A stretch of DNA of 64,000 bases from an uncultured virus (IMG/VR IMGVR_UViG_3300044730_000954). Its lineage: Duplodnaviria; Heunggongvirae; Uroviricota; Caudoviricetes. Made by a program: the position numbers and the translations under genes. Position 1 is the stretch's first letter. Every line of letters starts with the position of its first letter. The stretch is from the IMG/VR virus record IMGVR_UViG_3300044730_000954; one strand, 5' to 3'. Below, piece after piece: positions 7,806 through 46,154 of the stretch. The notes under the pieces were generated by a model. That model had not been told where the DNA came from, ran no database searches, and saw nothing but the letters and a program-made list of their open reading frames with translations.

Positions 7806-8122
7806 TAGAAACGTACCCCATGCTTCTTTGGTCTGCCTGTATTCTTTTCCATCTTCTCTTTTATAGCATAGTCAAGAGATTTTGTCATATATCCTGCTTC
7901 AACCATTCCAGCATACAAATCAAGGGTACGAATAATAATATCTGCAAACTCATCTGACATTTGATCTGGATCCATTTCCTTACGAAGAGCTTCCATTGCC
8001 TCCACTACTTCTGAAACAATCATCATCATTTGCTTGGCTACAAAAATAGGATCTACTGTTCTATCCCAAAATCCTTTATCAACTGCATTCTTATGTATCT
8101 GTTCTGCTAATTCATCAAACAT
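7805..8122 (-). CDS. MazG-like NTP pyrophosphohydrolase
   Basis: SEVVEAMEA...DEFADIIIR..D, KMEKN..RP..HG. Confidence 0.85.
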   Translation of the reverse strand: MFDELAEQIHKNAVDKGFWDRTVDPIFVAKQMMMIVSEVVEAMEALRKEMDPDQMSDEFADIIIRTLDLYAGMVEAGYMTKSLDYAIKEKMEKNTGRPKKHGVRF

Positions 8123-23093: not shown

Positions 23094-23732
23094 TTAAACT
23101 TCTTCCAGTGTTACCGATATATTCCACATGTCAAAATTATTTCCACCACGTTTTACTACCGAATATTTAAAGTCTGAAAAATATACCTGTATTACTTCAT
23201 TATACTGATTCAAATGTGTGAACGCTTCATTATCATCACCAAAATTAGAATAGTTGTCATATGCTAAAAACATCCAAAATGGTCCAGGATGTGAGTTGTA
23301 CCAGTCTAGTATTTCTACTCCTCCAGCGCCTCCATCAGCAGTATATTCTTGATCATTATTTTGATATGGTGAAATACCAGTATTAATATTGAATTCGGCA
23401 TTTTGAAAAAATCCTCTTGAAGGTAATAAATTCCAGGATAAACCTATTTGCATTTTATCTGCTATATGATAAGATCTCATTCTTCCATTTATAGTTCTTT
23501 GTCTTTGCTCAATTCTTTGTACACCAAAACTAATTTCATTTCTATTATGATCAGATAAGATAATGAATTGATCTATTAAATCTGGGTCAGTACCGCCTGG
23601 AACATCAGATCCAACTTCGTATCCATCTGGTAAATAAATTCCTCCAGTAAGAGTTCCAGGATTGTTAGACCATAAAACTGCTTGTGGTCTTTGGTATTTT
23701 CTTCTTCCTGTTAAATATCCTGCGGTAGCCAT
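23094..23732 (-). CDS. Distal tail protein (Dit-like)
   Basis: Directly after tape measure; RTINGRMR, ends WNISVTLEEV. Confidence 0.7.
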   Translation of the reverse strand: MATAGYLTGRRKYQRPQAVLWSNNPGTLTGGIYLPDGYEVGSDVPGGTDPDLIDQFIILSDHNRNEISFGVQRIEQRQRTINGRMRSYHIADKMQIGLSWNLLPSRGFFQNAEFNINTGISPYQNNDQEYTADGGAGGVEILDWYNSHPGPFWMFLAYDNYSNFGDDNEAFTHLNQYNEVIQVYFSDFKYSVVKRGGNNFDMWNISVTLEEV

Positions 23733-26700: not shown

Positions 26701-29700
26701 GAGATAAGGCTATAGTTCTAAATGTAATTTCTGCTTCTTTAGCAGTTGCCTTTCTTAGTTCTGCTATATCATCTGCAAAATCTTTTTGGAAAGACTCTGT
26801 TGCTTTTAATTCATCAACCCTTCCTCGTCTTTCAGCAGTCATTCTGATCTGTGGAACACCTTGAGTCATAGGATTTTGTGTGGGCTTTATTCCAAAAAAA
26901 TCACCAAGAGTTTTTAATTTTTGAGATGTTATATTTGCAGCATCCGCAAGCCCCATTATTGCACGACGTTCTTTTTCTCTTTGGTTATTAATAAATTTAA
27001 ACGCTGCAATAGATAGACTAACTACTCCAACAAGAGCACCTACTACTCCAGCAAATCTTAGTAAAAATTTTCCTGCAGTTAATAGTTTAGACCCAAATCC
27101 AGCAGTATTTGCAAATAATCCTTTAAAGCTTGTTGCACCCATAGCGGTAGCAATTTTATTTGCTCTTGCAGCAACTACATTTGCAAACATTTCTTGTGTA
27201 AGTAGTTGTACTACTGACATTAAACCAAACATTAGTCCTGATATTTTAAATACCGCTTCGGATAGTCCTTGGAATCTACCGCCGAATGCTGATGCGACAC
27301 CGCTAACACTTGTAAGAGCAAAAGAAACACCCATAAGTGCACTATTAAATTTAGCTAGATTTTTGGTTGATCCACCAAATCCACCAGCACCACCATCTCC
27401 TCCAGCAGCGCCTCCTAAACCTCTTCCAGCATTTCTTGCTCCACCTCCACCGCCAGTTCCTTGATTAACGCCATCAATTGCAGCGTCTCCTAGATTTTGA
27501 CCAGCTAGTGTTACGTCATCCATTCCTTCAAACATGCCTTGTTCAAGACCGCCAACTACATTGTCACCTTCTTTTATTGCTCTTCTTGAATTAGATTGAG
27601 ACTGTGTGCCTTGTGCTATTCCTCTTATTGCTGCATCTCCGAGCTGAACACCAGCAATTCCTGCTTCTTGTGCTTCTTGAAATAAGGCTTGTGTAAAAGC
27701 TCCAGCATCGTCTTTGAGTTCTAGTAGTCTTGCTTTTGCTTCAACACTTAGCTGATTCCACATATTTTGTAAAGATTGAACATTTAGTCCTGATATTTGT
27801 GCTATTTCATCACCAATATTAAATGCTTTTGTAATTTCTTCTCTAAAGTTTAATACTTTTCTTTCAACTTGCTCAAGTGCTCTAAGATCTTTTTCAGGAT
27901 TATATGCTCTTTGCTCTTTAGTTTCGTAAAAATCTCCCTGCAATCTTACATCCGTTACAGCAGCAGCTGCTCTGCTTTGATATGCTAAAGATACATCTTT
28001 TGATTCTGCTCCACGCTTTGCAACTTGACCGAGTACAGATGCACCAGCTCTAGTTGTTGGATGAATTCCTTCTTGTAATTGTTTTAATTCGGCCTCAAAT
28101 TGATCAATAGACATATTTAATTTTTGTGCCATTTCCGCAATGTCTGTTTGTGATAATGAATCAGTTACTTTATGAATGCTATTTAAATAATTATTTATTC
28201 CGCCAAGATCTGCAATAAGATTATCAGCATTCCATAGTTTGGCATCAACTATCTCACCAGCAACCTCTATTTGTTGAACCTGTTCAGAAATATGAGATGC
28301 TTGTTTTCTTTGTAAAGCACCTATCTTTCTATTTATTTCTTCAGCACCAAAACCAAGTTGTTCAAGATATGAACGAACGGATTCATCAATTGCCTGTAAT
28401 TCTGCATCAAGTGTTGACCAGTTAATTTTACTAGTTTGTCCTTTAATTGCAGATGGTGCTTTATATAATGCTACTTTATCCATGCTCTTTATATCTGAAG
28501 CTGTTTTAGTAAATGTTCCCGATGCTGATCCAGTTCTTCCTATTCTATATCCTGGAATATTTCCTGCAATCATTCCCTGTATTAGTGGTGCATATTTCTT
28601 TGCCATGTCTGCTGGAATAACTGCTTCTCCTGGAGTAAGCATTGCTGGAACTGTATCCTGATTACCACTTCCAGGAACGGATATAATTCCAGTATTAAAT
28701 CCTGGTAAGAATGGTTGACGCATCATTCCAGGATTTATTTTTGAAAAGTTTGCTCCAGCAACTATTGCTCTTTCATATGACTGTGCAAGTTTTTGTACTG
28801 CGCCAGATTCCACATTGAATGTTTGTATTAATCTAGCATGTGACTGATCAAGAGAGTGTGCAACAGCTAAAGCATTTTGTTGCTCAACTGTTAAATATTG
28901 TGTTTGTTCTCCAAGCACTTGTGACTGTCCAGTTAATCTTAAATATCCATTACGAAGAAGAGCTAATGATTTTATACCATTTGCAATAAAATTAGCAATC
29001 AAACCAAATGTCATAAGTGCTACTGGAGCAATCCCTCCAAGCGTTACTGTAATTACTGTTATTGCTTTTTTAACACCAGATGATAAGTTATTAAATTTTT
29101 CAGCGATACTTCCTACAAAATCAAGAATTGGTGTTACTGATTCTAAAAATACTTGTCCAATTGGAACTAATGTTAATCTTAAGTCTTCTACTGCCTTACG
29201 AAATTTATTCATAGACGATTCGGCAGTCATTCCTAATTCTGACTCAGCAGTTGCTGCTAAATCCTCAGCAGAATATCCAGCAAGTTCAAGAACACGTGCA
29301 GCCTGTGTTCCGCTAGAAGTTACATTTTCAAAAAGTGTTGATAAACGAGCAAATTGAAATTTTCCAAATAATTGCTCAATAGCCCGAGCACGTGTTAATG
29401 GATCTAATGTATCTAATGCCTTTGCAAACTCAACAACTGTAGCTCTTAAATTTCCCTGATTACCCTCAACTATTTGCTTTATATTAATTCCCATATTAGC
29501 AAGCATTGCAGATGCTTTTTCAGTTGGATTGATTAATGCTGCAAGACCAGACTTTAATGCGTTAGCACCTTCTGATGCATTTACACCACCCTGTTTCATA
29601 GCAGTCATAAAAAATGCTAAATCTTTTACATCTCCACCCAGTTGCATGATAACTGGTGCTACTTTAGGAATTGCAGTAGTAATATCATCAAGAGAAACAA

Positions 29701-30691
29701 CTGTTTGGTTTTCAACAGCATTTAAAAAGTTAATAGAGTCTGATAAATCTTCATTTGATAATTTAAAAGCATTTTGCAGAGATATAGTTGTCTCTAGTGC
29801 TTTTTGCTGATCAATTTGACCAAGAACTTGTAGTCTTGTTGCTTCAGTTACCTGTCTTTGTAAGTCTATACCCTGAAAACCAGCGGCAGCAGCATCTGCA
29901 GCTAAACCAACTGTGCTAGCAACTGAAATTCCATATTGTGTAAATGATTGTCCAAGTGCCTGAACATCTGCAAGAGCCTGATCTCTTTCTTCTGTTGGAG
30001 TAAATAAATCTCCATATACTTTTCTAAACTTAAGGGCAGCACTTTCCATATCCATGAATGTTTTTGAAGCAGCAGATCCTAAAGCTATTAATGGAAGTGT
30101 AAAACCAACCATAAGCTGACGGCCAGCCCATTGTGTATTTTTACCAAAATTTAATAAATTAGTTGACCCTTGTTTTATAAGTTGATTAAAAATTGCCTGT
30201 CTTTGTGCTGCCATCTGAAGCTGAGTTGATATATTAGACATGTCAAGCTGATTTGGAATAATAGCAATAGACCGCATTGCTCCAGAGGCATCTCTGCCCA
30301 TTTTAATATATTGTGTTTGTAACCTTTTAACACTTTCTTCGGCTACCTTATTTACTGTATCAAATTCAGATTTAAATAAACGACCAAAAGTTTTTGTTGC
30401 TCCACCAGCAAAACGAAAATATTCTCGCATTGAGAATTTGTTTTTTTCAAGTGAGTCTGTAAAAGATTCAGCAGTAGTTCTTACTGTTCGCAATTCTGCA
30501 GAAAAATTTCCAATAGAATTAACACTATTGATAAAATTTCTCTGCAGATCACGTTGTGCAAGTGCAGCAGCTTCGCTGCTTTTTGATATTGAAGTGTGAA
30601 ATTGTGATATCTGACGCTGTAAAGCTTTTAATTGTGATAATGCATTTGACGTATCTATATTTACGCCAATATTAGCATTAACGTCAGCCAC
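23732..30691 (-). CDS. Tape measure protein
   Basis: 2319 aa helical; GVNASEGANALK TMP motif, hydrophobic segments, two PA(M/L)LTPGE motifs; GTG start with GAGGTG SD. Confidence 0.93.
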   Translation of the reverse strand: MADVNANIGVNIDTSNALSQLKALQRQISQFHTSISKSSEAAALAQRDLQRNFINSVNSIGNFSAELRTVRTTAESFTDSLEKNKFSMREYFRFAGGATKTFGRLFKSEFDTVNKVAEESVKRLQTQYIKMGRDASGAMRSIAIIPNQLDMSNISTQLQMAAQRQAIFNQLIKQGSTNLLNFGKNTQWAGRQLMVGFTLPLIALGSAASKTFMDMESAALKFRKVYGDLFTPTEERDQALADVQALGQSFTQYGISVASTVGLAADAAAAGFQGIDLQRQVTEATRLQVLGQIDQQKALETTISLQNAFKLSNEDLSDSINFLNAVENQTVVSLDDITTAIPKVAPVIMQLGGDVKDLAFFMTAMKQGGVNASEGANALKSGLAALINPTEKASAMLANMGINIKQIVEGNQGNLRATVVEFAKALDTLDPLTRARAIEQLFGKFQFARLSTLFENVTSSGTQAARVLELAGYSAEDLAATAESELGMTAESSMNKFRKAVEDLRLTLVPIGQVFLESVTPILDFVGSIAEKFNNLSSGVKKAITVITVTLGGIAPVALMTFGLIANFIANGIKSLALLRNGYLRLTGQSQVLGEQTQYLTVEQQNALAVAHSLDQSHARLIQTFNVESGAVQKLAQSYERAIVAGANFSKINPGMMRQPFLPGFNTGIISVPGSGNQDTVPAMLTPGEAVIPADMAKKYAPLIQGMIAGNIPGYRIGRTGSASGTFTKTASDIKSMDKVALYKAPSAIKGQTSKINWSTLDAELQAIDESVRSYLEQLGFGAEEINRKIGALQRKQASHISEQVQQIEVAGEIVDAKLWNADNLIADLGGINNYLNSIHKVTDSLSQTDIAEMAQKLNMSIDQFEAELKQLQEGIHPTTRAGASVLGQVAKRGAESKDVSLAYQSRAAAAVTDVRLQGDFYETKEQRAYNPEKDLRALEQVERKVLNFREEITKAFNIGDEIAQISGLNVQSLQNMWNQLSVEAKARLLELKDDAGAFTQALFQEAQEAGIAGVQLGDAAIRGIAQGTQSQSNSRRAIKEGDNVVGGLEQGMFEGMDDVTLAGQNLGDAAIDGVNQGTGGGGGARNAGRGLGGAAGGDGGAGGFGGSTKNLAKFNSALMGVSFALTSVSGVASAFGGRFQGLSEAVFKISGLMFGLMSVVQLLTQEMFANVVAARANKIATAMGATSFKGLFANTAGFGSKLLTAGKFLLRFAGVVGALVGVVSLSIAAFKFINNQREKERRAIMGLADAANITSQKLKTLGDFFGIKPTQNPMTQGVPQIRMTAERRGRVDELKATESFQKDFADDIAELRKATAKEAEITFRTIALSLAGQGFGKEMISDVIDALREEAGKTDVKIDLKSLDLKTEEGQSGFAKLASDITNELAVAAKTGYKEVEVLKQGIYENGAMYSYYTKELKPTIALQRASAAAGQNLFNMMTGLAGGLKSGAIGAKEFNQGFNQLEAQMKALEAANPGSSMLALNAAIKLLEPETQKLFVGITNNADAMLMLRAQALGLTAILPGLASAIKQVNAGYTGDATALVQAQLNLERYKKMILDAAKVTEEEIKKLLGTKTGGKDGEKSAFQKAIEQLKQQQLELAYTNKAYNRLKRAGIETGKAFEIASDPILAAALATTKVGTKKWEELIYLIKNVNIELAKGELKKFFETRNAEVEFQQKFANIIPILQKLGLEGEDIREILSNPILAEKFIEDLKDGQVDSQKLKKYIEQIPELKQIDILLNTKSVQDQFDEAFSKAMEVFDIQSKMAEAEYKPKIIDAEKEVKAAQDAVNDVQKQISDLQRKIQADQRDVEMNFTRPIEVLQKDIQRLQRQIETQIDRPIEELNKQISKLQRNIEIQFDRPIAALQEQSSDLANDLTLIDKAAEGINAKYDAQEKALQQIADVNQEIINQDKQRLSVADALTRGDISAAAQAIQESRAQAAAAAAQRATGTLQAARETEIGGLRGPVSGLTRAQIEQQQFQIGQQIFALEEKRDLVQAEILAKQDQIYNIELARPVLLEQIRSKEDEIYVLERGRETAVANIRINEDALYKLQNDLLPLREKELSDKQAALDKVKDELKSRLDAIDLEKAKWELSALALKAAEIEADKYNKVLDAGKNLVGDIAKGWDAVAEAARKAAANIAAANSSQSSGLVSKGTVTSTKTVDGRTAITGIQAKMYGGKIKPMAFGGRVGSDSVPALLTPGEFVMNKSAAKSFGPLLNAINESKYPSMIARKLKSSSNLGNVITQSYQQPTYAVSRPTAFSMPVQNAISSVSDNSNTVYNYSVDINVGSTNASADSIAKAVIDEIRYIDLQRIRGQRA

Positions 30692-34278: not shown

Positions 34279-35246
34279 TATAAAACTCCTGGTGTGCCAA
34301 AATTTGTAATATATTTCTGTAGTATCTTATCTACCAAGATGTTTCCTGTTCCATCTAAAGCAGACTTATCAATTTGAATCTTGTACTGATCTGTATTATA
34401 TGATGTTATATATCTTTTGTGATATTCCATTTTGCCACATTTAATATCATTAATTAACATTAATGCTGCATCTTTAATATCATATGGAACTACTTTATAC
34501 CCAGTTTCCAGAGAGAATAAATAATTCCATCCTGTTGGAAAAGTTACTCCTGGAGCAACTGCAAATGTAACAGTGCTATCTTCTGTATCATACAAATAAT
34601 AAGAATCTGATTCTGAAAGAGGTACACCTTTAGGAGTTCCTACTTGACGAATGTATGAGTCTTCTTGCTGCACCCAATCTTTTATAATTGCTGTTTTATC
34701 TTTTGTAAGTAAATAATTCCATTGCCCCTGTGCTTGCGGACTATCATTATAGTCCCAGGCAAGTTCATTATTTTCATATGCCTTTAATATTTTATAAGTG
34801 CGATCCCAAACTGGCATAAAATCAGTTCCATTTCCAGACGTTTCATACCATGATCTTTCATAATAAAATCCGCCAGGTACAATTGAATCTATAATTGCTC
34901 TAGCAAGACCTTCGTGTGCAGTGTACTCTGCTATTTCTGTAGCGGTAGTTCCAAGAGTTTTTGGATCCACATATGGTCTCATAACCTCAAGATTATCTTC
35001 TACAATAATTTCTGCTTGTTCGCCTTCATCAGATTCATAAATTGCTAAATAGTATGATTCATCATAAGTGCTAAAAAGAGATGGAAGCGTATACTCTAGT
35101 TTAGAATCTGCAGTTGATGCTATTGTTTCTTCTACCTCTACCACATTTCTTGAGCTGTCTTGAATAACTAAAATATAATCTGTTTCCGCTAGTGGAACAT
35201 CATATGATATAGAGAGCGGATATGGTGGTAAGCGTAGTAGTTGCAT
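34278..35246 (-). CDS. Head-tail adaptor
   Basis: ARAIIDS..GYKVVPYDIKDAALMLI..VDKILQKY. Confidence 0.7.
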   Translation of the reverse strand: MQLLRLPPYPLSISYDVPLAETDYILVIQDSSRNVVEVEETIASTADSKLEYTLPSLFSTYDESYYLAIYESDEGEQAEIIVEDNLEVMRPYVDPKTLGTTATEIAEYTAHEGLARAIIDSIVPGGFYYERSWYETSGNGTDFMPVWDRTYKILKAYENNELAWDYNDSPQAQGQWNYLLTKDKTAIIKDWVQQEDSYIRQVGTPKGVPLSESDSYYLYDTEDSTVTFAVAPGVTFPTGWNYLFSLETGYKVVPYDIKDAALMLINDIKCGKMEYHKRYITSYNTDQYKIQIDKSALDGTGNILVDKILQKYITNFGTPGVL

Positions 35247-35602
35247 TAGATTTTACCGTAATACTTGGCCACTTCTTCTGGTGTTGCTTGACGAACACTC
35301 TTGTGAGTTAGCCATTTAACGGATGCCTCCTTTGTAATTATATTATAGCCCTTTTCAAGAGCCCCCACCCCATTCCAATGAATATTGCGATTTGAATAAA
35401 CAGCAACTTTTTCTTTTGGATTTTCTACTTTCTTAGATTCTTTTTTTTCATCTTCTCTAGGAACAAAAGGCAATATGGCCTCTAATATTTCTATCTTTGT
35501 ATTTGCACCAACTAAATCTATTTTATTTTTTTTTGCATATGACTTTAATTGTGGCATTGTCATTTTACTAAATTTATCTACTACTTCTTTTGTTGTTGAC
35601 AT
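35246..35602 (-). CDS. Small basic protein with Rho-N/HeH-like N-terminal domain
   Basis: KMTMPQLKSYAKKNKIDL..TKIEILEAI. Confidence 0.6.
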   Translation of the reverse strand: MSTTKEVVDKFSKMTMPQLKSYAKKNKIDLVGANTKIEILEAILPFVPREDEKKESKKVENPKEKVAVYSNRNIHWNGVGALEKGYNIITKEASVKWLTHKSVRQATPEEVAKYYGKI

Positions 35603-35617
35603 AAATCCTCCACTGCT

Positions 35618-35626
35618 ATTATATCA
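35618..35626 (-). promoter_or_regulatory. Extended -10 promoter TGATATAAT
   Basis: Intergenic, upstream of GGAGG. Confidence 0.7.
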
Positions 35627-35632
35627 GAGTTA

Positions 35633-35845
35633 CTATCTTCTAAATGTTTGTGGTTTTCTTATACCAGCAGGAGTTCCACTCATTATTATATTTTCTCCAA
35701 AGTTTGCTGTAGGGATACACCCCATTGCAAATCTTTCTGTAATAATTCCATTGGGTCCACTAATAACTGTTCCTATGCCACCAGCAGCTATTGCTCCATC
35801 ACCACTGTGTTGATGATTTATAGTTGGATTTCCTGGATATGACAT
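35633..35845 (-). CDS. 70-aa paralog of the major capsid N-terminal arm
   Basis: AGGAG SD; aligns by eye to capsid residues ~10-82. Confidence 0.75.
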   Translation of the reverse strand: MSYPGNPTINHQHSGDGAIAAGGIGTVISGPNGIITERFAMGCIPTANFGENIIMSGTPAGIRKPQTFRR

Positions 35846-35864
35846 TTGTTCTCCTAATGATTAA

Positions 35865-35888
35865 GGAGGGCAACTTACGCTGCCCTCC
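35865..35888 (-). terminator. Hairpin after major capsid gene (probably leaky terminator)
   Basis: GGAGGGCAGC-GTAA-GTTGCCCTCC followed by only TTAATCATT. Confidence 0.7.
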
Positions 35889-35910
35889 CTAAACTTTTAG
35901 TTTTTACAAA

Positions 35911-37056
35911 CTATGCGGTTGGGTCAACTGCTGCATCCGCATAAGCGACTGCATCAAGCTCTTCCCATTGCAAACCAAAGCGGACGAATACTGTGTATTC
36001 AATTGTATCCTTCTTTGGCTTGTATTCACGATTTACCGTGATATCACGCTGGAAGCCCCATACACGGTTGGCAGGGAATGTTAGGTCAACATATCCGCCT
36101 GGGTAATAAGGAACTTCTTGAACGTCAATTCCGAGAACACGGGTTGTACGTGCTCCACCGAATGTTTGTGCAGCACCATCAAGATATGCTTGACGGTTGC
36201 GCTCTGTACCACCAGTGCGTGGAGCAAAAGCTTCAGCAATAGCGTCAGCAAGTGTACCGTTGTTCTTTACGATACCCTGGAATGCGTCAGTACCAGCATA
36301 GAACTTAAGATTAGTCTTAAGTGCACGATACTTACGTGGCATTGCAAGAATAATATCCTGCATTACCTCTGTAGTCCAGGCATCGTCAGAAACAGTAACA
36401 ACTGCTTCATGAGCATCTGAACCATCTACAACTTTTGGAACGAAACCTTCCATAATAGAGAGGAATGCTCCATCTCCACCATTTCCAGTACCGTTAATTG
36501 CTAGATCTTCAATATCATTAGCAAATGCATTGGTCATCAAGCGAACTAGATGATCTTCCAACGCACCTCCTTCAATATTGTCTTCAAGCGCTTCAGTAGA
36601 TACTTCCCAATCAAGACGAATCTTTTTGGTTGTTAGCTCTACCTTTGTGAATGTAGCACCAGCGTTTGTATAATCGTTGCTTGCTTGTGCAGCAGCACGA
36701 ATAACACGCTCACCAACGTTAACTTTTTCAAGTTCCATGGTGTTTGCTCGCATTGTAACTCTACGACCATCTTTGGCGAGAACTGTTGCATCCCACACAT
36801 AGTCAATGAAGCGGCGAGCCTGCTCTGGAAGGAGAATACCACCTGGAGTACCAGTAGGATTTACTGCGTTTGCTCCAGTCGTAGCACCCCATTCAGGTGT
36901 AGCGATATTACCTAGGTTAGCACCAATATCAGATGTGCTTGGGCTTGTAGCCGTTGCACCTCCAATATCACCTGATGCAAAAGCACCATCACCACCATGT
37001 TGATGGGATATGGTTGGAGCACCTGGATAATTCTTTACGATTTCTTGTTCCGACAT
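35911..37056 (-). CDS. Major capsid protein (HK97 fold)
   Basis: GGILLPEQARRFID, EALEDNIEG..FANDIEDLAING; AGGAGG SD supports ATG 37056. Confidence 0.92.
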   Translation of the reverse strand: MSEQEIVKNYPGAPTISHQHGGDGAFASGDIGGATATSPSTSDIGANLGNIATPEWGATTGANAVNPTGTPGGILLPEQARRFIDYVWDATVLAKDGRRVTMRANTMELEKVNVGERVIRAAAQASNDYTNAGATFTKVELTTKKIRLDWEVSTEALEDNIEGGALEDHLVRLMTNAFANDIEDLAINGTGNGGDGAFLSIMEGFVPKVVDGSDAHEAVVTVSDDAWTTEVMQDIILAMPRKYRALKTNLKFYAGTDAFQGIVKNNGTLADAIAEAFAPRTGGTERNRQAYLDGAAQTFGGARTTRVLGIDVQEVPYYPGGYVDLTFPANRVWGFQRDITVNREYKPKKDTIEYTVFVRFGLQWEELDAVAYADAAVDPTA

Positions 37057-37083
37057 ATTGTTCACCTCCTAGTGAATTTACCT

Positions 37084-38388
37084 TTAGTTAAATAGGTCGG
37101 CATTTGTGAGGAAACGACCGCCCCATAGGGATTTTTGAACCTGTTTTACAACAGGCTCCTGTACGATCTCGCCTAGATCGCCAGACTTGCGGAAAGCCGT
37201 ATCTTTTTCAACAAGATCTACTCGCTTTCCAAACTCATTAAAAGTTCCCTTTACTTGGCTTACCTCACTTGCTACAGACTTTACTTCGCCTGTAACTGTT
37301 TCAAGGGACTTTGTTATTGCATCAACATTTGCTTGCATAGCTTTTACTGTTTCTGCAAGATTGCTCAAGGCATTAGTTACAGAGGTATTAATTTCTGAAA
37401 CAGACTTTGCAATTTCAGCAGCTGTATCAACAACTGCATCAACTGCTTTTTCTGCTATATCATCAATAGCAGGAGCATCCACTGCAGCTACTGCTTCCTC
37501 TGCCACTGGCTCTGCTGCTGGAACATCTGCAGAAACTTCTGCTGGTGCTTCTTCTGCTGGAGCCTCTGGAGCAACCTCAACATTTGGAACAACTGACTCA
37601 CCCTCAGCAAGCAATGCTGGAGCTGTCTCTTTTGTTTCTTCTGTCATAGGATTTTCCTCCTTTGTTATCTTAATTGTCTTAATGCCTTTTGCACTATCAA
37701 CTAAGAACTTTAGTGTTTCTGTATCATTTTGATCTTCAACAAATCCAATATTTTTCATTGTGTCATTGCAAGATGGACAATTTTCGTCAGACTCTTTTGA
37801 TAGTCTAACTATGTCATCTGAACCGCACCAGTAAACTGTATCTACAACAGCTTTTGCAAGAAAACCACCAAGCTGTCCTTTTTCAATAGAAATTACATTG
37901 GCAAACTGGTTTGCTGGATTATCTACTAGAGACAATTCATGCAGATCATATTCTTTAATTATACGCACTGATTTATCAATTTTTTCATCATACATGTCAT
38001 CAGACTTTGTAATATTTCCACCAATTGAAAATCCAGTTAAAGTACCGTCAAGAACTTTCTCCCAAGTATCTTGGGCTCCTTTTGAAACATATGCGGAAAC
38101 ATATACTCCACTATAAAACTTTTTTTCTCTAGGATCAAAATAACGATCTTCTTTAAATGAAACAACCTTTCCTACAGCACTAGGCTGATGCATTTCACGA
38201 AGGTTGCCACGGAATTTCTTAAATGCGTCTATACTTGCTTCAGTTGTGACAATATCGCCCTGCTTGTCTACATTGTCCAATGTAGCAAAGCCAGAAACGA
38301 TACGACGCTCTTGGTCTACTTTGCCAATAGGCATAGAGAAGCGAACATTGTCGCCATCTGTAGTCCATTGTGCTTTATTTATAATCAT
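37084..38388 (-). CDS. Prohead protease fused to scaffold-like region
   Basis: VSGFA..DKQGDIV..EMH..GFSIGG..ELSLVDNPAN; acidic Ala/Pro linker and coiled coil. Confidence 0.9.
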   Translation of the reverse strand: MIINKAQWTTDGDNVRFSMPIGKVDQERRIVSGFATLDNVDKQGDIVTTEASIDAFKKFRGNLREMHQPSAVGKVVSFKEDRYFDPREKKFYSGVYVSAYVSKGAQDTWEKVLDGTLTGFSIGGNITKSDDMYDEKIDKSVRIIKEYDLHELSLVDNPANQFANVISIEKGQLGGFLAKAVVDTVYWCGSDDIVRLSKESDENCPSCNDTMKNIGFVEDQNDTETLKFLVDSAKGIKTIKITKEENPMTEETKETAPALLAEGESVVPNVEVAPEAPAEEAPAEVSADVPAAEPVAEEAVAAVDAPAIDDIAEKAVDAVVDTAAEIAKSVSEINTSVTNALSNLAETVKAMQANVDAITKSLETVTGEVKSVASEVSQVKGTFNEFGKRVDLVEKDTAFRKSGDLGEIVQEPVVKQVQKSLWGGRFLTNADLFN

Positions 38389-38428: not shown

Positions 38429-40081
38429 CTATTGAGATGATCTTCCCTCTCCTTGTGGATTTCTTCCAGATATTGTAGTTGGGGAATCTGAGTTATTATT
38501 TGTTCTTTCTGCATCTCTTTCTCTGTTACCCGCCAAGTCTGCCCTAGCATCTGTAGCCTGTCTTGGAGACATAATAAACGGATCATCTCCGTCAGGTCTT
38601 TGTGACATATTTAGCATTTCACGAGCCTCATTAGGAGTAATAACTTGAGTTTTAACATATCGCTCAATAATCTGAGATTGTGCTATTTCATCTGTTAGTG
38701 TAAGTTCATTAAACTTTAACTGTAAAATATCAGTTTTCTCACGAATAATTTTATTTATTACCTTTTCAATATTTCTTTGTTCTGGTCTAGCTACCTGCTC
38801 TTTAAAGGTACGGTCTTGGGACATAGCAGCAGCAATAGCAGCAGAGTCAGATCCGCCCAACTTAGAGATAGGTACTTGATGAGCAATTAATATTTCATCA
38901 CGATTTTGCTTACGATACTTTTCAAATGAACCTTCTTGAACACCGCTTTCAATTGGCTGCATACTAAACTCAACCTTGTTATTATCTGTATCTCCAGGAA
39001 GTGGGATATAGAGTGTTCTGTGGTTTTGTCCTTTAAGTCCAGTCTGCATAAATCTAAACATTTTATCTTCAGCATCTGCAGAAAGCTTTGCACCTTTAAC
39101 CGTAATAATATATCTTGGAACTGCTTTGTTTTGAAAGTAGTCAATATTGTATTGAGATGCAAGTGAATCTCCAACTACCGCCTGAATTGCGGAAAGAATA
39201 TCTGGAACTCCATAAAACGTATTTAATGGAGAATAAGATTTATAATGAATAATTTCATTTGGCCTTGGATCAGATGTAATTGGGTTTTGATTTTTTGCTC
39301 CAAAATTACGGAAATAAACTAGCTTTTGACCAATAATCTGAACAAAACCATCACGAAGACGACGAACACGAACGGTAGTTGCTGGAATATGACCAATATA
39401 TCCAATATCTCCACTTACTGTTCTTCCTACTTCAAGGAATCCATTTCCAGTTGCTTGGACATCTGTATAAAATTTGACCATAGTTTGTTCAAAACTATCA
39501 TCATCATTTAAAGATTCTAACCAGTCACGTACTTCTAACTTTAATCTTTCAATACGACGACGTGCTCTTTCAACCTGACCATCGTCATCATTCATTTCAA
39601 AACGAAGCATTGTACGGTCTGTAATTTCAAAATCATATCCCAAGCCAACAACATTTTCTACCTTTGCATCAATAGCAGCATGATTAGCAAAAGAATTATC
39701 ATAATAGCTTGCTAGTTCATACATGTTGTATGGTGGTGTAATTACATCAAATAATCCGTATCCATTTCTATATACCGTTCCAGGATTGATCTGTTTAGAG
39801 TATGTTCCGTCTTTTCCTGCAGGCACAGAATTTGCTGCTGCAAGATATGCTGGAGTAGGATTTACTGCTGGATATCTTGGATCATATCCATTTGTACTAG
39901 AACTTGGACTAACATATTTAGAAACGCTTCTTGTTGTTCTGCGTTTAAAATTAATATCAATTCCAGCTAAATCTTTTAATTCATCCCATGACTTTGAAAA
40001 TGGATCACTATTTAAAAATGGACTTTCTTCATCTGTTTGAGTATGTAGACTTGCTTGTATATGATCAAAATCTTTATTCAT
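38429..40081 (-). CDS. Portal protein
   Basis: TGNGFLEV, EIIH..FYGVP, YFQNKAVP, AHQVP, ITPNEAREML. Confidence 0.93.
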   Translation of the reverse strand: MNKDFDHIQASLHTQTDEESPFLNSDPFSKSWDELKDLAGIDINFKRRTTRSVSKYVSPSSSTNGYDPRYPAVNPTPAYLAAANSVPAGKDGTYSKQINPGTVYRNGYGLFDVITPPYNMYELASYYDNSFANHAAIDAKVENVVGLGYDFEITDRTMLRFEMNDDDGQVERARRRIERLKLEVRDWLESLNDDDSFEQTMVKFYTDVQATGNGFLEVGRTVSGDIGYIGHIPATTVRVRRLRDGFVQIIGQKLVYFRNFGAKNQNPITSDPRPNEIIHYKSYSPLNTFYGVPDILSAIQAVVGDSLASQYNIDYFQNKAVPRYIITVKGAKLSADAEDKMFRFMQTGLKGQNHRTLYIPLPGDTDNNKVEFSMQPIESGVQEGSFEKYRKQNRDEILIAHQVPISKLGGSDSAAIAAAMSQDRTFKEQVARPEQRNIEKVINKIIREKTDILQLKFNELTLTDEIAQSQIIERYVKTQVITPNEAREMLNMSQRPDGDDPFIMSPRQATDARADLAGNRERDAERTNNNSDSPTTISGRNPQGEGRSSQ

Positions 40082-40472
40082 TTTCGTAAGCATCTCTTCC
40101 GTGAGTATTTAATGTATCCTGTGCTGCCTTCCATGCGCCAAGATCGTTCATTGATGGGATTAAACCATTTTTCATTCTATCAACCTGCTCAGTATATTCA
40201 TCATCGCTAATTCTTGTAAGTCCAGGAACAAATACTGCCTTGCCATCACCTGGATCACCATAATGCATGGCAGCCTGCTTAAGCTTTGTTATTTGAGAAA
40301 TATCACCCTTCATAGAGGGAATATTCAATACATTGCCATCATTATCTGTAAACCATTTTCCATTAGATTTTTTATAAACATATAGTCCCCAGTCATATGA
40401 CTTATCTATGACCTTTCTACGTACATTTTGAACAATTGGTTTACCAGTTTTTTGACTAATCAAAGGATTCAT
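40074..40472 (-). CDS. Hypothetical protein upstream of portal
   Basis: Coupled to portal; leaderless promoter upstream. Confidence 0.7.
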   Translation of the reverse strand: MNPLISQKTGKPIVQNVRRKVIDKSYDWGLYVYKKSNGKWFTDNDGNVLNIPSMKGDISQITKLKQAAMHYGDPGDGKAVFVPGLTRISDDEYTEQVDRMKNGLIPSMNDLGAWKAAQDTLNTHGRDAYENE

Positions 40473-40490: not shown

Positions 40491-43400
40491 TTATACTGGT
40501 GTTCCGACTCTAATGGTCCATATTGTGTCATTATATATCTTAAGGTTTTCAGCATCAAATATCATACCCTCTTCATCATCAAATATAATTTTATTAGTTC
40601 CTATATATGTATCATATACCTTAGAGGGGTCCACTCCATATAAGTCTGCAGACGACACAACCAATACTTCTTGCCAAGTATAGCTTTCCTTCCAATAAGA
40701 CCAATCGCCTTCTGAATTAACACGTGCCCATGGTCTTAAAATATTACTCTGAACCTGCTGTAAATTATTTGCTTGATAAAAAGCAATATTATTAAATACT
40801 AATGGCCCAGTTAAATTAATTGCTCCAAGAAACGCATCAAATATTAAGTTAGAAGCAAACTTAAGACCAATAACGCTCCACTCTCCAACAGTCAATACTG
40901 GAGAGTCTACATAATATCCATTTTGATAGTATGAAATATTTGTTATTTCTTGCCCAGTTGATACACTTTTAGCAAATATTTTTGCTCTAGTTCCAGACTC
41001 GTTTGTAGCAACACTGTAAAATTTAAAAGTATCATCTTTGTGCACTATTTCAAAAATTTCTACTGGTACTCCAGAAAATCTTTCTAGATCATATCTCATC
41101 CATATTTGTGAAGCACTTACTCTATATTCACTTGCAATTGTTGAATTAACTGGAATTGCTATACCACGGCTAACCTGACTATCAAAATCTCCACGAAGTT
41201 CTATTCCAGATTTTCTATTTAAATATAAATATGGAGTGCTTCCTTTATATATACTATATGGGTTTGCTGTTTTATAATCAAAATATAGTCCAGCCTTAGT
41301 AAATGGAAAAACATTAATTCCAAATCTAGTTCCTACTGGATTAAATGAATTATCGTTGAATGCTTGTGATGCTACTTCTAGTTTTTTAAGTTTTATGGGT
41401 TTTGTTAGTATACCCCGACTATTAAACTCTACTCTATTAACAATAGCTAATTTATTAAAGTTTACAGTTTTTGTTGGATATATTAGTGTATTATCTATTG
41501 TTTCAAATTTTGTGGTAAGCCAATTTGGATAATCATCTAGAGAAATAATAGATCCTTCTCTAGCTGGCTCGGTATTTGTAAAATAACTCTGTGGTTTATT
41601 TGATCCATCTTTTACATATTGAAATGTCACATATGTTCTAATTACCGAATCTGATGTATCATATTCATAATATTTCTCAGTCTTTTGATTCATATCTTCA
41701 TAATTATTCCAGCCAGTAAATAGAAAATTATCTAATTGATAATATGTTTTTTGAGAGGGATGAGCATATGATTCTTTTAATTGATCATATGTCCATGATC
41801 CTACTGTTTCATATTCTGCCAATTTTGTAGGTGATGGACTTGCTATATTAAATTGTAAAAAGTCTAAATCATAATATTTATTGCCGACATCATTGGTTAC
41901 AAACTGTGCAAAATATGATAGTGGTAGATAGTCTTCCCAAAATCCAGATACGCCTATATCTAGGTAATATGTCTCGTATGCTTCAGATGGAAGAATTGTA
42001 TAACTGGCCGTGTGTGCTAATAATTCATTTGCATTTTCAGATTCTTCTGACCCAGTAGCTAAATAACTATCAAGTATTGCCGTACCATTTTCTTCAAAGT
42101 TATTAATAATTTCATCTGCATTATACTGTGTTGATATTCCTATAGAATATATTTTTCCAGTAAATTGATAAAGATTTGTATCGTCTCCAGCAACATACAT
42201 TTGCAAATTACTTTGATTTCCAAAAAATGAAATTACGTTACTTCCAAAATAATTTATTAACTCTTCTATTTGTATACCTACAGCATATTTTTCATCTTCA
42301 ACGATTATTCCAGTTGTGTGAAGAATTTGCTCTGTTCCATTAAAATTCAATAAGTATACAATTTCATCAAGATCTTTTTTAATAGCAAAATAATTTAAAG
42401 TATTTGGATTATAAATTTTAAACAATATTTCTTCTGTTGTTAGATCGTCAGAACTGAATACTCCATAAATTGCACCTATGGATGAATTAATAACATTGAG
42501 TTTTGGAAAGTTAAAATAACACTGGGTAGTGTCCCATCCATTATTAGGTCTAAATGTTATAAACTTGTCTCCCGAAGACTGAATGTCTTGGTTATCATCG
42601 TATAATTCTTGTATTGTTTTATCTTGTAAAAATATATCTGGTAAAGAATACTGCGGTGTTTCTAAAGAAAAACTAGTTGTAGTTAAATTGTCAAAACTTC
42701 CTTGCTCCCATCTAGCAAAGTCTGGATAGTTATAGTTTGCAGTATAGTCAGCAAAAGTGTAATCTATAAAAGCTTGAGTACCACCATATGCTGAATTTAT
42801 TGCCTCTGGAGATACAACTCCCTGTCCATAAACATATCTTCTTTTTGCAACATTAACCGAAACGGCATATGAATAAATTGCAATACAATCAATTTCAATA
42901 GGGCTAACATCTTCATAGCAATAAAAGCCAAGCCAGTCTTGGTTTTTATCATTTATATCATATTCATCGGGTAATGACAAGGATGCAAAGTCTACTGAAA
43001 AAGATATTACTTCTTCTCCATTTATTAAGACACTAGCATTATTACGAATTAGCTTAATATGAATAAGCATTGGTCTAAACCATTCACCAACAAAATATGA
43101 TGCAAATTTATTTCCAATAACTAAAGTTAAAAATCCAGATTCTACATATAAACCATCTGTAGATGCTACTGGACCAAAAATTCTTTTAGGGGTATATGCA
43201 TTAGAGTTCACACGCATCCAAAATTCAACAGTATAATCTTTATATTGACCTATCTTATTTAAAAATCCATATCCAGGAACTATCATTGATGGATCTTCGT
43301 CTGGATTTGGGAAAAGTTTAGTTACTGCATTTGATCCGTATACCATCGGAACACTACTATTCTTTGCTAATAAAGAATTATCTTTTACTAAATAATATCC

Positions 43401-44096
43401 TACATCACCTGCTAGACCATATGGATCTGCTTCTATACAATTTGTTGCCAATGGAGTTATTGATACTGGAAATGTTATTGGTGATACACCTAAAGATGTC
43501 GCATTAAATTCTTCTGACCACTGACCAGCGGTTATTCCATTTACATAAAAATCATAATTAACGCTAGATGTTGTAGAATTGTTAACATTAAATTTTAAAA
43601 CTACTCTGAAATCTGTATTTTCTTGAGGAATACTAAAAGTTCCAGATATGAAGGTCCATTGTTGAAAATTATCTATGGACATAGTTTCTAGCTCTTGAAC
43701 AATTTGAGAAGTACTTGTATCTGTATACTCGTATCCAATTGATACAGATTCTAAAAATACGCTATTAGAATAAAAGTATGTGCCTATTGAAATATTTTCA
43801 AGATCATAGTTTAGTGTTGAAAAGTTTGCTAAATCTGGACTAACACATGTTAGTATTTCTGATGTACTTCCTGCTACTGTTCCTTCTAAAAGACTTAACT
43901 CACTATCTAAAAATGGCTGTCCAATTGAAGATGTTGATGCAGTAGCAGTTCCATTGGTAACTGTCCATCCATCAGATATATCTCTTTGACCTTCTGTTAT
44001 TAATGATACATAGTTTGCATTATCATCTAAAGCCCATAATATAATCGGATGTTCCGAGTATATTTTTTCTGCATACAAATTAGATGGGGTAGTCAT
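40491..44096 (-). CDS. Large virion protein with LamG/concanavalin-like domains
   Basis: SEHPIILWALDD, DYTVEFW..LINGEEV..IDCIAIYSY; acidic and beta-rich. Confidence 0.6.
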   Translation of the reverse strand: MTTPSNLYAEKIYSEHPIILWALDDNANYVSLITEGQRDISDGWTVTNGTATASTSSIGQPFLDSELSLLEGTVAGSTSEILTCVSPDLANFSTLNYDLENISIGTYFYSNSVFLESVSIGYEYTDTSTSQIVQELETMSIDNFQQWTFISGTFSIPQENTDFRVVLKFNVNNSTTSSVNYDFYVNGITAGQWSEEFNATSLGVSPITFPVSITPLATNCIEADPYGLAGDVGYYLVKDNSLLAKNSSVPMVYGSNAVTKLFPNPDEDPSMIVPGYGFLNKIGQYKDYTVEFWMRVNSNAYTPKRIFGPVASTDGLYVESGFLTLVIGNKFASYFVGEWFRPMLIHIKLIRNNASVLINGEEVISFSVDFASLSLPDEYDINDKNQDWLGFYCYEDVSPIEIDCIAIYSYAVSVNVAKRRYVYGQGVVSPEAINSAYGGTQAFIDYTFADYTANYNYPDFARWEQGSFDNLTTTSFSLETPQYSLPDIFLQDKTIQELYDDNQDIQSSGDKFITFRPNNGWDTTQCYFNFPKLNVINSSIGAIYGVFSSDDLTTEEILFKIYNPNTLNYFAIKKDLDEIVYLLNFNGTEQILHTTGIIVEDEKYAVGIQIEELINYFGSNVISFFGNQSNLQMYVAGDDTNLYQFTGKIYSIGISTQYNADEIINNFEENGTAILDSYLATGSEESENANELLAHTASYTILPSEAYETYYLDIGVSGFWEDYLPLSYFAQFVTNDVGNKYYDLDFLQFNIASPSPTKLAEYETVGSWTYDQLKESYAHPSQKTYYQLDNFLFTGWNNYEDMNQKTEKYYEYDTSDSVIRTYVTFQYVKDGSNKPQSYFTNTEPAREGSIISLDDYPNWLTTKFETIDNTLIYPTKTVNFNKLAIVNRVEFNSRGILTKPIKLKKLEVASQAFNDNSFNPVGTRFGINVFPFTKAGLYFDYKTANPYSIYKGSTPYLYLNRKSGIELRGDFDSQVSRGIAIPVNSTIASEYRVSASQIWMRYDLERFSGVPVEIFEIVHKDDTFKFYSVATNESGTRAKIFAKSVSTGQEITNISYYQNGYYVDSPVLTVGEWSVIGLKFASNLIFDAFLGAINLTGPLVFNNIAFYQANNLQQVQSNILRPWARVNSEGDWSYWKESYTWQEVLVVSSADLYGVDPSKVYDTYIGTNKIIFDDEEGMIFDAENLKIYNDTIWTIRVGTPV

Positions 44097-44123: not shown

Positions 44124-46154
44124 TTAAGATATTTTAATCATGCATGTATCTGTAGTACAGTATGCTTCGCCTTCAGCTTCTAGATTATCTACCCCGTCAT
44201 AAATAGCAGACCAATTAATCTTCTTAATCTGTCCAATATATTCGTTATATTCATCTTTTGTAATCTGAGTATATGGCTGTTGTGGATATGTCTTATTACC
44301 CATTGGCAAGAAGGATACCGCTTTTAACTGACCTTCATACATATGAAGTGCTGGAGCAACATGTTTTGTTTCTGTTTCCTTATCAAATGAAAGGGTAACT
44401 GAAACTCCATTATCTGACCAATATTTTTGAGTTGTTGCAGCAAGTGCAATTTTCTCAAATAATGTTACATCTTTTTCAGAACGTGGATGTCCCGAGTGTA
44501 CTGGGAAATATACAACTGTTGTATTGGCAGATACTAGATCTGATTCCATTTTATACCCTGCTGCTTTAAACAAGCTAATCATTGGATCTTGATTGCCAAA
44601 GCGAATTGCACGAAGAAAGAAGTTTCCTCCTGGACCCCAATGAACTCCTGGAGTTGCACCAGATAGCAATGATACTGAACCAGAAGGCTTAACTGTTGTT
44701 ACACGAATTGACTCACGAACGCATAACCACTCAGAATACGAATGATCATATTTACGTATTGTCTTGTATCCTTCATCCATCCATTCACGAACTGCTGGCA
44801 AACCTTTTTGGTCTGCAAAAGATGCAATACCAGTAAGAGATGTTCCAATACGACGGTTGCGCTGCATAATACCATTTGTAATCTGCCAATGTGTTGGAAC
44901 AAGAGTGACTGTTTTACCATACAAATATGCAAACTTTAAAGTACGCAAGAAATCTTCTTTAGATTCATGACGATTTAGGTGTACTTCAACAAGTGTGCAA
45001 AGTTCATAAGATTCTAAGGGTTGCTCTGCACAAGGATTAAAGCCCATTACACGATAATCTTTTCCATCTGCAGGATCTGCAAGACGACCAAAGTTACGAG
45101 CAACATCAAGCCAAATAAATCCTGGCTCTCCATTATCTGCAATTAAATCTACATAATCTTCATATTTAGTTCCTACAGCAGCAGCAATAGAATTATTGCT
45201 CATCCATGCCCATCCAGGATTTTCTGGGTCAAATGAATTTCTATCAGGAAATACTTCTGCATTTTTTAAATTAATAAAGTCTTTATCTTCTGGAGAACCA
45301 AGTGCTAGCGTGGCAGAACGACGAACATTTCCAGCAACTACACATGTTCCGATAAGATTAACAATATCTACAATTGCACGAGAGTCAAGAGTTTCTCCTG
45401 GTCTGTCGCCAATAACAATACGTAAAGTATCGTGTAGCTTAATTAATGGGGCTGGTCCAGAGGCGGTACCGCCGAAACCTTTAATAGGAGCACCCAATGG
45501 TCTAATCAAAGAATAGTCAAAATTGATTTTAGCCTGACCTTGTTTTAAATATGAATTGAGTAGTAATCTTACAGACTCTACCCATCCTTCTCTTGTATCA
45601 GGAATTACATATGTTATTTCTTCTTTGGTATTGGCATATATTTCCATACCCTTTTCTTGTCCAAGGGTGTCAAATCCTACCCCTACCCCAAGCATCAAGG
45701 CATCCATAACCCAGCCAAAAAGGGCGCCAGGATCGTTTCTATCAATGTCCCTAGTAGATACCATGGCACAGTTCTGCAAGGCTGCTGAATTGCGTCTCTC
45801 CATCGTCATAGGGGTACCAAAAGCCCATAGCCCACGTCCTGGAGGAGTCCACTTCAAGTTAAACATACGGTCATAGGCTTCTTGAGCAGACTTTTGAGCT
45901 TTGTTGTCATTCCATGGCAAACGATTTTCTTTTGCATGGTTTTTTTGTACTGAATACATACCTTCAATTACACGCTTACAAACCTCATGCCAGCGTTCTT
46001 TTGTACCGTCTTCTTTGACTCGTGAGTATGTGCGGATAAAAGTAATCTCTCCTAAAGAGTTGCCGCCAGCGTCGGTAAAACCAAAAGGAGCCTCAATATC
46101 TTTATATTTATTTACAAATTCATCCAACAATCTAAAAGAAAATACATCTGACAT
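44124..46154 (-). CDS. nrdJ: Class II adenosylcobalamin-dependent ribonucleoside-triphosphate reductase
   Basis: RTYSR, PPGRGLW, QNC, GNVRRSA, NPCAEQ..ELC, TTVKPSG, C-terminal CTTDTC. Confidence 0.93.
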   Translation of the reverse strand: MSDVFSFRLLDEFVNKYKDIEAPFGFTDAGGNSLGEITFIRTYSRVKEDGTKERWHEVCKRVIEGMYSVQKNHAKENRLPWNDNKAQKSAQEAYDRMFNLKWTPPGRGLWAFGTPMTMERRNSAALQNCAMVSTRDIDRNDPGALFGWVMDALMLGVGVGFDTLGQEKGMEIYANTKEEITYVIPDTREGWVESVRLLLNSYLKQGQAKINFDYSLIRPLGAPIKGFGGTASGPAPLIKLHDTLRIVIGDRPGETLDSRAIVDIVNLIGTCVVAGNVRRSATLALGSPEDKDFINLKNAEVFPDRNSFDPENPGWAWMSNNSIAAAVGTKYEDYVDLIADNGEPGFIWLDVARNFGRLADPADGKDYRVMGFNPCAEQPLESYELCTLVEVHLNRHESKEDFLRTLKFAYLYGKTVTLVPTHWQITNGIMQRNRRIGTSLTGIASFADQKGLPAVREWMDEGYKTIRKYDHSYSEWLCVRESIRVTTVKPSGSVSLLSGATPGVHWGPGGNFFLRAIRFGNQDPMISLFKAAGYKMESDLVSANTTVVYFPVHSGHPRSEKDVTLFEKIALAATTQKYWSDNGVSVTLSFDKETETKHVAPALHMYEGQLKAVSFLPMGNKTYPQQPYTQITKDEYNEYIGQIKKINWSAIYDGVDNLEAEGEAYCTTDTCMIKIS

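Follow-up and report, generated by a model that had tools for sequence, protein, structure and literature searches.

A free-standing copy of the capsid N-terminal extension encoded beside the major capsid gene in a lineage of lake phages

The window analyzed here is a 64,000-nucleotide stretch of DNA from an uncultured lake phage (IMG/VR record IMGVR_UViG_3300044730_000954), and directly after its major capsid gene it carries a small gene, called S in what follows, that encodes a free-standing copy of the N-terminal part of the capsid protein. Both genes lie on the minus strand: the capsid gene at 35911-37056, encoding an HK97-fold protein of 381 amino acids (PF05065, phrog_1623), and S at 35633-35845, an open reading frame (ORF) of 70 codons that ends in TAG. 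S bears the marks of a selected gene that arose once, and it is present in some and absent in others of the phages that share almost the same capsid. It may function as an optional head protein that binds in trans at the place where the capsid's own extension binds, a reading that is favored here, albeit tentatively.

The relationship between S and the capsid is evident at the protein level. The ORF finder starts the capsid gene at a GTG at 37065, which is 3 codons longer than the start at the ATG at 37056, with AGGAGG 8 nucleotides ahead of the latter. By BLASTP, residues 2-70 of S align with capsid residues 12-85 when counted from the GTG, or 9-82 when counted from the ATG, with 29 of 74 columns identical (39%) and E 2e-11 for the pair. 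A hidden Markov model (HMM) built only from homologues of S (38 sequences) and run over the six frames of the window recovers S itself (E 5.9e-35); its second match is to the N-terminus of the capsid (E 1.9e-17). The original prediction, made from the letters of the sequence, held that the 70-residue product aligns end to end with the capsid N-terminus, and the pairwise statistics bear this out, with similarity far beyond chance. No third copy of the domain was found in the six frames of the window, where the next HMM match has only E 0.94.

Two conserved stretches are common to S and the capsid extension, one of the form YPG...HxH...GxGA and the other of the form LGxI...G...GTPxGI, which leads into the N-arm. 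Within a genome, S and the N-terminal part of the capsid are 35-47% identical in all 45 unique pairs. S also has conserved traits of its own, namely an MSYPG start, a GPxG turn in the middle of the protein and a basic tail, such that the last 8 residues carry a net charge of +2 to +6 in 68 of 68 unique homologues. The middle of S is more hydrophobic than that of the capsid segment, with mean hydropathy of 0.60 as compared to 0.02.

The copied segment was described in the original prediction as the capsid N-arm. The homology to the capsid N-terminus stands, but what was copied is a lineage-specific extension of about 55 residues together with only the first residues of the N-arm, rather than simply the N-arm, because capsids of the Streptomyces phage type have only about 30 residues before a conserved FIDYxWD motif and the window capsid has 82. 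Residues 1-82, which comprise the extension and the start of the N-arm, are encoded at 36811-37056 on the minus strand, and residues 9-82 are those that align with S. The Pfam and PHROG capsid models start at residues 71-75, exactly where the S-aligned part stops, and the capsids of Streptomyces siphoviruses align to the window capsid only from about residue 75, at 41-45% identity. The capsid of Streptomyces phage Belfort has about 30 residues ahead of FIDYxWD, and 80 related viral contigs yielded 36 parsed capsids, of which 35 have an N-terminus of this Streptomyces type, 30-37 residues long.

A model of the capsid protein was generated with AlphaFold2 from a 62-row alignment; a shallower alignment of 21 sequences gave a mean predicted local distance difference test score (pLDDT) of 31.9. 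The model from the deeper alignment has an HK97-type body with a core pLDDT of 70-85 and a first helix at residues 77-90, and residues 1-73 are predicted to be neither helix nor strand, at pLDDT 33-39. The extension therefore does not resemble a helical scaffold or delta domain in this model, although the lack of helix in residues 1-73 is weak evidence at such a pLDDT. In Foldseek the capsid body has its best match in P2/P4 gpN (7jw1_B; E 3.7e-15, probability 1.00), and further matches are to the capsids of T5, DT57C, a gene transfer agent and HK97, as expected of the HK97 fold. The sequence likewise matches PF05065 over residues 75-249 at 28.2 bits (gathering cut-off 24.2) and phrog_1623 at E 5.4e-70, and a PDB sequence search with the capsid profile gave no matches. 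S ends at residues aligned with ...ARR, just ahead of the capsid helix at 77-90, and so is without the N-arm helix. It is also without the HK97 fold, given that its 70 amino acids correspond to no more than capsid residues 9-82, which precede the fold, and it is thus not a full-length paralogue of the type of T4 gp24 or Ccm.

RNA-library contigs of three runs (X15, X16, X19) join position 36825 or 36828 to 37022 and so skip 193-196 nucleotides. The skipped stretch, 36825-37022, corresponds to capsid codons of about 12-77, which encode the extension. These contigs may come from relatives with too divergent an extension, or from capsids without one.

S has been retained as a gene in a wide range of relatives. 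Its homologues form 46 protein clusters of 42-89 amino acids in a collection of 5.8 billion proteins. Retrieval of loci with S itself gave 80 viral contigs, and thus 81 loci with the window, after the removal of two duplicate loci from one record. The S frame is complete in 80 of these 81 loci. The capsid ORF lies directly upstream of S in 78 of 80, with the other 2 ending at a contig edge, and the gap between capsid and S is 63-71 nucleotides. All 64 full-length capsids of S loci have the homologous N-terminal part. The ratio of nonsynonymous to synonymous substitution rates (dN/dS) was calculated by the pairwise Nei-Gojobori method, for pairs with dS of 0.05-1.5 only. It is 0.26 for S (815 pairs, maximum 0.63), 0.17 for the N-terminal part of the capsid (788 pairs) and 0.12 for the capsid body (975 pairs), such that S evolves faster than the capsid. 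Lineages of S as divergent as 44% identity keep both an intact frame and a Shine-Dalgarno sequence. Conservation and dN/dS thus give no indication of decay, and S behaves as a real gene under purifying selection. In a tree of 68 S sequences and 157 capsid N-terminal parts, all S sequences form one clade (support 0.968), which points to a single, old duplication of the 5' part of the capsid gene as the probable origin of S.

The only broken S seen, at locus L324, is reduced to 47 codons and runs into the end of a capsid ORF whose match is limited to residues 1-348. It could reflect a deletion in progress or a misassembled contig.

Searches beyond the lineage returned little that resembles S. 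There were no Pfam or PHROG families in S at E <= 0.01, so it does not belong to a described sequence family of decoration proteins, and tblastn of S against 50,697 phage records gave no match. Look-alikes of S in the Atlas are only unnamed clusters, with scores of 0.79-0.83. A profile of S together with capsid N-termini was run against 1.84 billion representatives and gave 20 matches, 18 of them to small proteins or N-terminal fragments of capsids. Fourteen of the 18 were inspected and are mostly of the S type or of the capsid N-terminal type. The remaining two, P0173 and P0176, are giant or large proteins rich in Gly, Ala and Thr and were rejected as compositional matches; P0176 has an hhalign probability of 19.7% and no relevant Pfam domain. 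In this profile search, therefore, the domain was not credibly found outside the phage lineage. No description of a free-standing copy of a capsid N-terminus was found in the literature, with subscription journals and supplements outside the coverage of that search.

How often phages of this lineage go without S depends on how the relatives are sampled. Loci retrieved with S are biased towards its presence, with only 2 of about 116 lacking it. The conclusion that S is almost never lost was therefore rejected, and retrieval based on the capsid was used instead. Among the capsid-sampled relatives around the window capsid, S is present in 26 of 71 usable loci and absent in 45. In a sister clade, with a capsid body about 80% identical, S is present in 0 of 75 loci. 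The sister-clade capsids do carry the extension, but with QPG in place of YPG and without HxH. Since this clade has the extension and never has S, the extension is older than S. On the capsid tree, at least 9 gains or losses of S are required, as compared to a mean of 21.2 and a minimum of 14 in 500 shuffles of the labels.

Presence and absence differ by a clean cassette. In alignments of loci with and without S, the hairpin that follows the capsid gene is retained, and the Shine-Dalgarno sequence and the ORF are gone up to a TG/TATAAT motif, such that the S cassette is delimited by the capsid hairpin and this motif. The motif, which resembles TGnTATAAT and lies at 35618-35626 on the minus strand in the window, is just upstream of the next gene, which encodes 118 amino acids. 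TATAAT, with TG adjacent or one base upstream, precedes the 118-amino-acid gene in all nine aligned relatives, both with and without S. The S-less capsids of loci L339 and L340 differ by 2 residues from the S-bearing capsid of L341. Because near-identical capsids occur without S, by way of a clean cassette difference, S is dispensable for making this capsid. The original prediction had offered absence or decay in relatives, together with a lack of expression, as the sign of a duplication remnant; absence is indeed common, as the 45 of 71 S-less relatives and the sister clade attest, but S is not a decaying gene.

The TG/TATAAT motif, which is like an extended -10 element, is kept irrespective of S in the window and in L331, L332, L339, L341, L314, L317, L145, L146 and L048.

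The signals around S were also proposed in the original prediction, which gave S its own Shine-Dalgarno sequence behind a hairpin with a weak U-tract, and both are found. The Shine-Dalgarno sequence AGGAG (35851-35855, minus strand) lies 5 nucleotides upstream of the ATG of S. A purine-rich motif of this kind is present 4-8 nucleotides before the S start in 35 of 35 unique intergenic sequences, as AGGAG in most and as GGGAG or AGGA in several. The G+C-rich stem-loop between the capsid stop and S (approximately 35863-35890, minus strand) has a conserved fold, at about -22 to -30 kcal/mol in each of the 35 unique intergenic sequences. Its pairing is preserved through two-sided changes (GGGCAG/CTGCCC, GGGTAG/CTACCC, GGACAG/CTGTCC), and the hairpin is still present in relatives that lack S. 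With 4 T in 8 in its tail, the stem-loop falls short of the terminator scan, which needs at least 5 T in 8 to call an intrinsic terminator. It could be either a leaky terminator or a stabilizer of the mRNA 3' end. A consensus scan found no promoter-like site between the hairpin and S, so S would be transcribed only by read-through from the capsid unit, and it is plausible that S is less abundant than the capsid protein. In four lake metatranscriptome runs, which belong to four studies, there are contigs over the capsid gene and over part of the protease gene, and none covers S or the next gene; since the contigs come from relatives, in many cases with no more than 88-95% identity, and S is the faster to diverge, the gap is uninformative on expression.

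Further evidence comes from the co-variation of S with its own capsid. S and the N-terminal part of the capsid were divided into three segments and compared within and across the genomes of 14 representatives, with 5000 permutations that leave relatedness between genomes in. In segment 1, from YPG to GxGAF, identity is 0.62 within genomes and 0.50 across, and 0 of 5000 permutations reach the observed value. In segment 2, the middle, the values are 0.18 and 0.20 (4383 of 5000), and in segment 3, which runs into the N-arm, they are 0.50 and 0.48 (352 of 5000). Gene conversion was considered as the cause of the co-variation in segment 1 and was rejected, because synonymous codons agree equally often within genomes and between them: the fraction of identical codons among identical residues is 0.58 within and 0.55 across. 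This argues for a shared constraint or co-adaptation at the protein level, rather than recent gene conversion, as the probable source of the co-variation. The HxH motif follows the same pattern, in that both copies have it in 68 unique pairs, neither has it in 4, and 0 of 72 pairs are discordant. Capsids that bear HxH but have no S also occur, at 16 of 45 S-less loci.

The explanation favored here, which is held at somewhat less than even confidence, takes S to be an optional protein of the head that acts in trans at the binding place of the capsid's own extension. By this account S is an accessory and dispensable gene that arose through one duplication of the 5' part of the capsid gene. The copy kept both conserved stretches of the extension, while its middle became more hydrophobic and its C-terminal tail basic. 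During assembly of the head, S would then engage in trans whatever site or partner the extension itself engages. Read-through of the hairpin would supply S in smaller amounts than the capsid protein, and its role would be to fine-tune or reinforce the head, not to be required for building it. We infer that S binds to the head at all, as well as its site and its amounts.

For the site, two systems serve as analogies. In P2, the N-terminus of gpN is found inside the procapsid, where capsomers meet one another, and gpO cuts off the first 31 residues of gpN (PMC7552001). In 80alpha, an N-arm helix inside the procapsid binds the scaffold (PMC5744158). By analogy with P2 gpN and the 80alpha capsid protein, the site for S could be the inner face of the procapsid, an inter-capsomer interface, or the protease-scaffold. 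Such an inner-face or scaffold topology is suggested because P2/P4 gpN ranks first among the structural matches to the capsid body and P2 has the same fusion of protease and scaffold. In the window, this fusion is encoded at 37084-38388 on the minus strand, as a prohead protease with a scaffold-like, acidic coiled-coil C-terminal half, an architecture like that of XkdF and gpO.

Several points weigh against this reading. The extension is unstructured in the AlphaFold2 model, so no docking site can be named. S is absent from most of the capsid-sampled relatives, with its gains or losses on the capsid tree, and the capsids of some S-less phages have 0-2 amino-acid differences from those of S-bearing phages (identical or 99.5% identical). 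Given that S is so often absent, any structural contribution would be non-essential. The middle third of S is only 18% identical to that of the extension, so S would be no simple stand-in for it. With regard to the co-variation, the 4 pairs that lack HxH are one clade and so represent one evolutionary event, and the permutation statistics do not remove the relatedness of the genomes.

Of the alternatives, the one that survives best, although it is unlikely, is that S mimics an internal head peptide or propeptide. The extension would be cleaved by the protease of XkdF/gpO type, and S, recruited into the procapsid by the same contacts, would either be cleaved too or stay inside with its basic tail against the packaged DNA. 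Processing of this kind is known for T5 pb8. The extension is placed where cleaved N-terminal segments sit in T5 pb8, as judged by Foldseek, and in P2 gpN, with the 31 residues removed by gpO (PMC7552001). The predicted disorder of the extension, the protease-scaffold fusion encoded just upstream and the positive charge of the S tail in 68 of 68 homologues all suit the proposal. However, no cleavage motif could be identified, and relatives of the Streptomyces type have the same protease with only an N-arm of normal length, so that capsid cleavage in the family is not established. This proposal overlaps with the favored one, from which it differs only in the fate of S.

It is rather unlikely that S is instead a non-structural mimic, which would imitate the capsid N-terminus in the cell and soak up or blind a host sensor that recognizes the capsid, or disturb head assembly by co-infecting relatives. 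A patchy cassette, set cleanly between the hairpin and the promoter-like motif that precedes the next gene and gained or lost at least 9 times, is typical of accessory or counter-defense genes, and S evolves faster than the capsid. S also tracks the first segment of the capsid at the protein level without gene conversion, as a mimic must. Bacterial sensors of major capsid proteins do exist, namely Avs7 and Dsr1 (PMC13581612). However, no known defense system senses a disordered N-terminal extension of a capsid, and S has neither homology to described anti-defense proteins nor a Pfam or PHROG family. Its place in the late head operon, dependent on transcription of the capsid gene, gives a timing that fits a structural partner better than early counter-defense. 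In the specific form in which S acts off the virion as a decoy, titrating a host immune sensor or the assembly machinery of a rival phage that recognizes the exposed extension, the idea is more doubtful still, although it would explain the tracking of segment 1, the gain and loss of the cassette, and how identical capsids do without S.

In the original prediction, S fills N-arm contacts where a capsid subunit is missing, for instance at the portal vertex, and this now seems improbable. S does retain the segment that leads into the N-arm (segment 3, 50% identical to the capsid), its abundance is probably below that of the capsid protein on account of the hairpin, and N-terminal segments of the HK97 fold make inter-subunit contacts (PMC7552001). 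As a necessary role, however, it is less likely, because phages with identical or 99.5% identical capsids and the same portal module live without S, and the sister clade, which shares the extension, has S at none of its 75 loci; moreover, S has no N-arm helix itself. S may modulate assembly, as was also suggested. That S is a functionless remnant of duplication carried along, as frequent loss without accompanying capsid change and the truncated copy at L324 might suggest, is very improbable in light of a dN/dS that is at most 0.63 in any pair, an intact frame and Shine-Dalgarno sequence conserved across highly divergent lineages, and the conserved features that are peculiar to S (MSYPG, the GPxG turn and the basic tail).

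None of the nearest known systems is a free-standing copy of an N-terminal extension alone. Dispensable decoration or cement proteins of phage heads include lambda gpD, T4 Soc and Hoc, SPP1 gp12 and T5 pb10. T4 gp24 is a capsid-protein paralogue that co-assembles, and delta domains and scaffolds are helical. Like S, the decoration and cement proteins are small, encoded beside the capsid gene, often non-essential and patchy in relatives, but they are not derived from a capsid N-terminus and have no sequence family match with S. In addition, the N-terminus of the HK97 fold starts inside the procapsid, so an outer-surface site for S is not obvious.

The P2 gpN/gpO system (PDB 7jw1; PMC7552001) is similar to that of the window in that its HK97 body is the best Foldseek match and its protease is fused to a scaffold just upstream of the capsid gene. 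Its N-terminal segment is a short helix, whereas that of the window capsid is a Gly/Thr-rich stretch of about 73 residues that is unstructured in AlphaFold2. The P2 segment is removed on maturation, whereas cleavage of the window capsid is conjectural, and P2 has no free-standing copy of its segment. In 80alpha (PMC5744158), as with S and the capsid, two head proteins, there the capsid and scaffolding proteins, have one N-terminal sequence, which points to a common partner; in 80alpha it is the host protease Prp. There, however, 13-14 residues are shared by two otherwise unrelated full-size proteins, whereas S is a copy as a whole protein and has no known cleavage motif. SaPIbov5 Ccm (PMC8569155) and T4 gp24 resemble S as duplicates of capsid sequence that serve as a second head component or assembly modifier, but both have the full-length HK97 fold, S is only the 70-residue extension, and Ccm is encoded by a satellite rather than by a phage. 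Finally, the delta domain or scaffold of HK97 type (bioRxiv 10.1101/2022.09.09.507160) is comparable to the extension as an N-terminal capsid add-on that is replaceable in principle by a separate protein. It differs in that the extension is helix-free in AlphaFold2 and the window phage already has a scaffold domain on its protease.

The genes around S form a head module on the minus strand. The portal protein is encoded at 38429-40093 (PF04860 E 8.3e-29; phrog_12 E 6.4e-53), and the protease-scaffold gene matches Peptidase_S78 (E 4e-7), Peptidase_S78_2/XkdF (E 4.7e-6) and phrog_9427 (E 1.1e-119). The 118-amino-acid gene after S, at 35246-35602 on the minus strand, has an N-terminus like SAP/Rho_N (Rho_N E 0.0017, below Pfam's cut-off). 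In relatives without S, its counterpart is the gene directly after the capsid. A likely counterpart after the capsid in Streptomyces phage Belfort is a weak match, with E 0.004 over the last 16 residues, at an identical position. Across loci L228-L307, the C-terminal part of the gene after S or the capsid is conserved (...YS.KN..W.GVG...GYNIV...), and its N-terminal half is exchanged between clades, being SAP/Rho_N-like in the window's clade and in Streptomyces phages and long, acidic and rich in Pro, Glu and Val in the S-less sister clade.

Among annotated phages, large Streptomyces siphoviruses of the Stanwilliamsviridae come nearest. The large terminase gene of the window (1627-3408) is about 35 kb from the portal gene, the tape measure gene (23732-30691) encodes 2319 amino acids, a DNA polymerase is encoded at 8115-11390, and the G+C content is 35%. 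Because of the terminase-portal distance, the size of the tape measure, the DNA polymerase and the G+C content taken together, the phage is placed with the large siphoviruses of Streptomyces-phage (Stanwilliamsviridae) type, as one that is adapted to a lake host of low G+C. No tRNA genes were found within the window. Two very large ORFs on the minus strand, 54507-60677 (2056 amino acids) and 40491-44096 (1201 amino acids), have no PHROG family at E <= 1e-5; the latter has the portal-side genes on one flank and a gene for ribonucleotide reductase (44124-46154) on the other.

Capsids with the HK97 fold are the commonest protein shells on Earth, with N-terminal arms and extensions that govern how they assemble, release the scaffold and remain stable. 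The lineage described here offers a natural experiment, with the same capsid found with and without a separate, selected copy of its extension, in hundreds of variants. The case asks what such extensions bind and whether they are able to act in trans. Over 3000 capsid clusters match at E <= 1e-10, which makes the lineage a highly abundant one in lakes, so S is widespread and not a one-off. If S is merely an optional head component, it would be a modest addition to the accessory head proteins; if it were a mimic or decoy, it would represent a new kind of counter-defense built from a structural gene.

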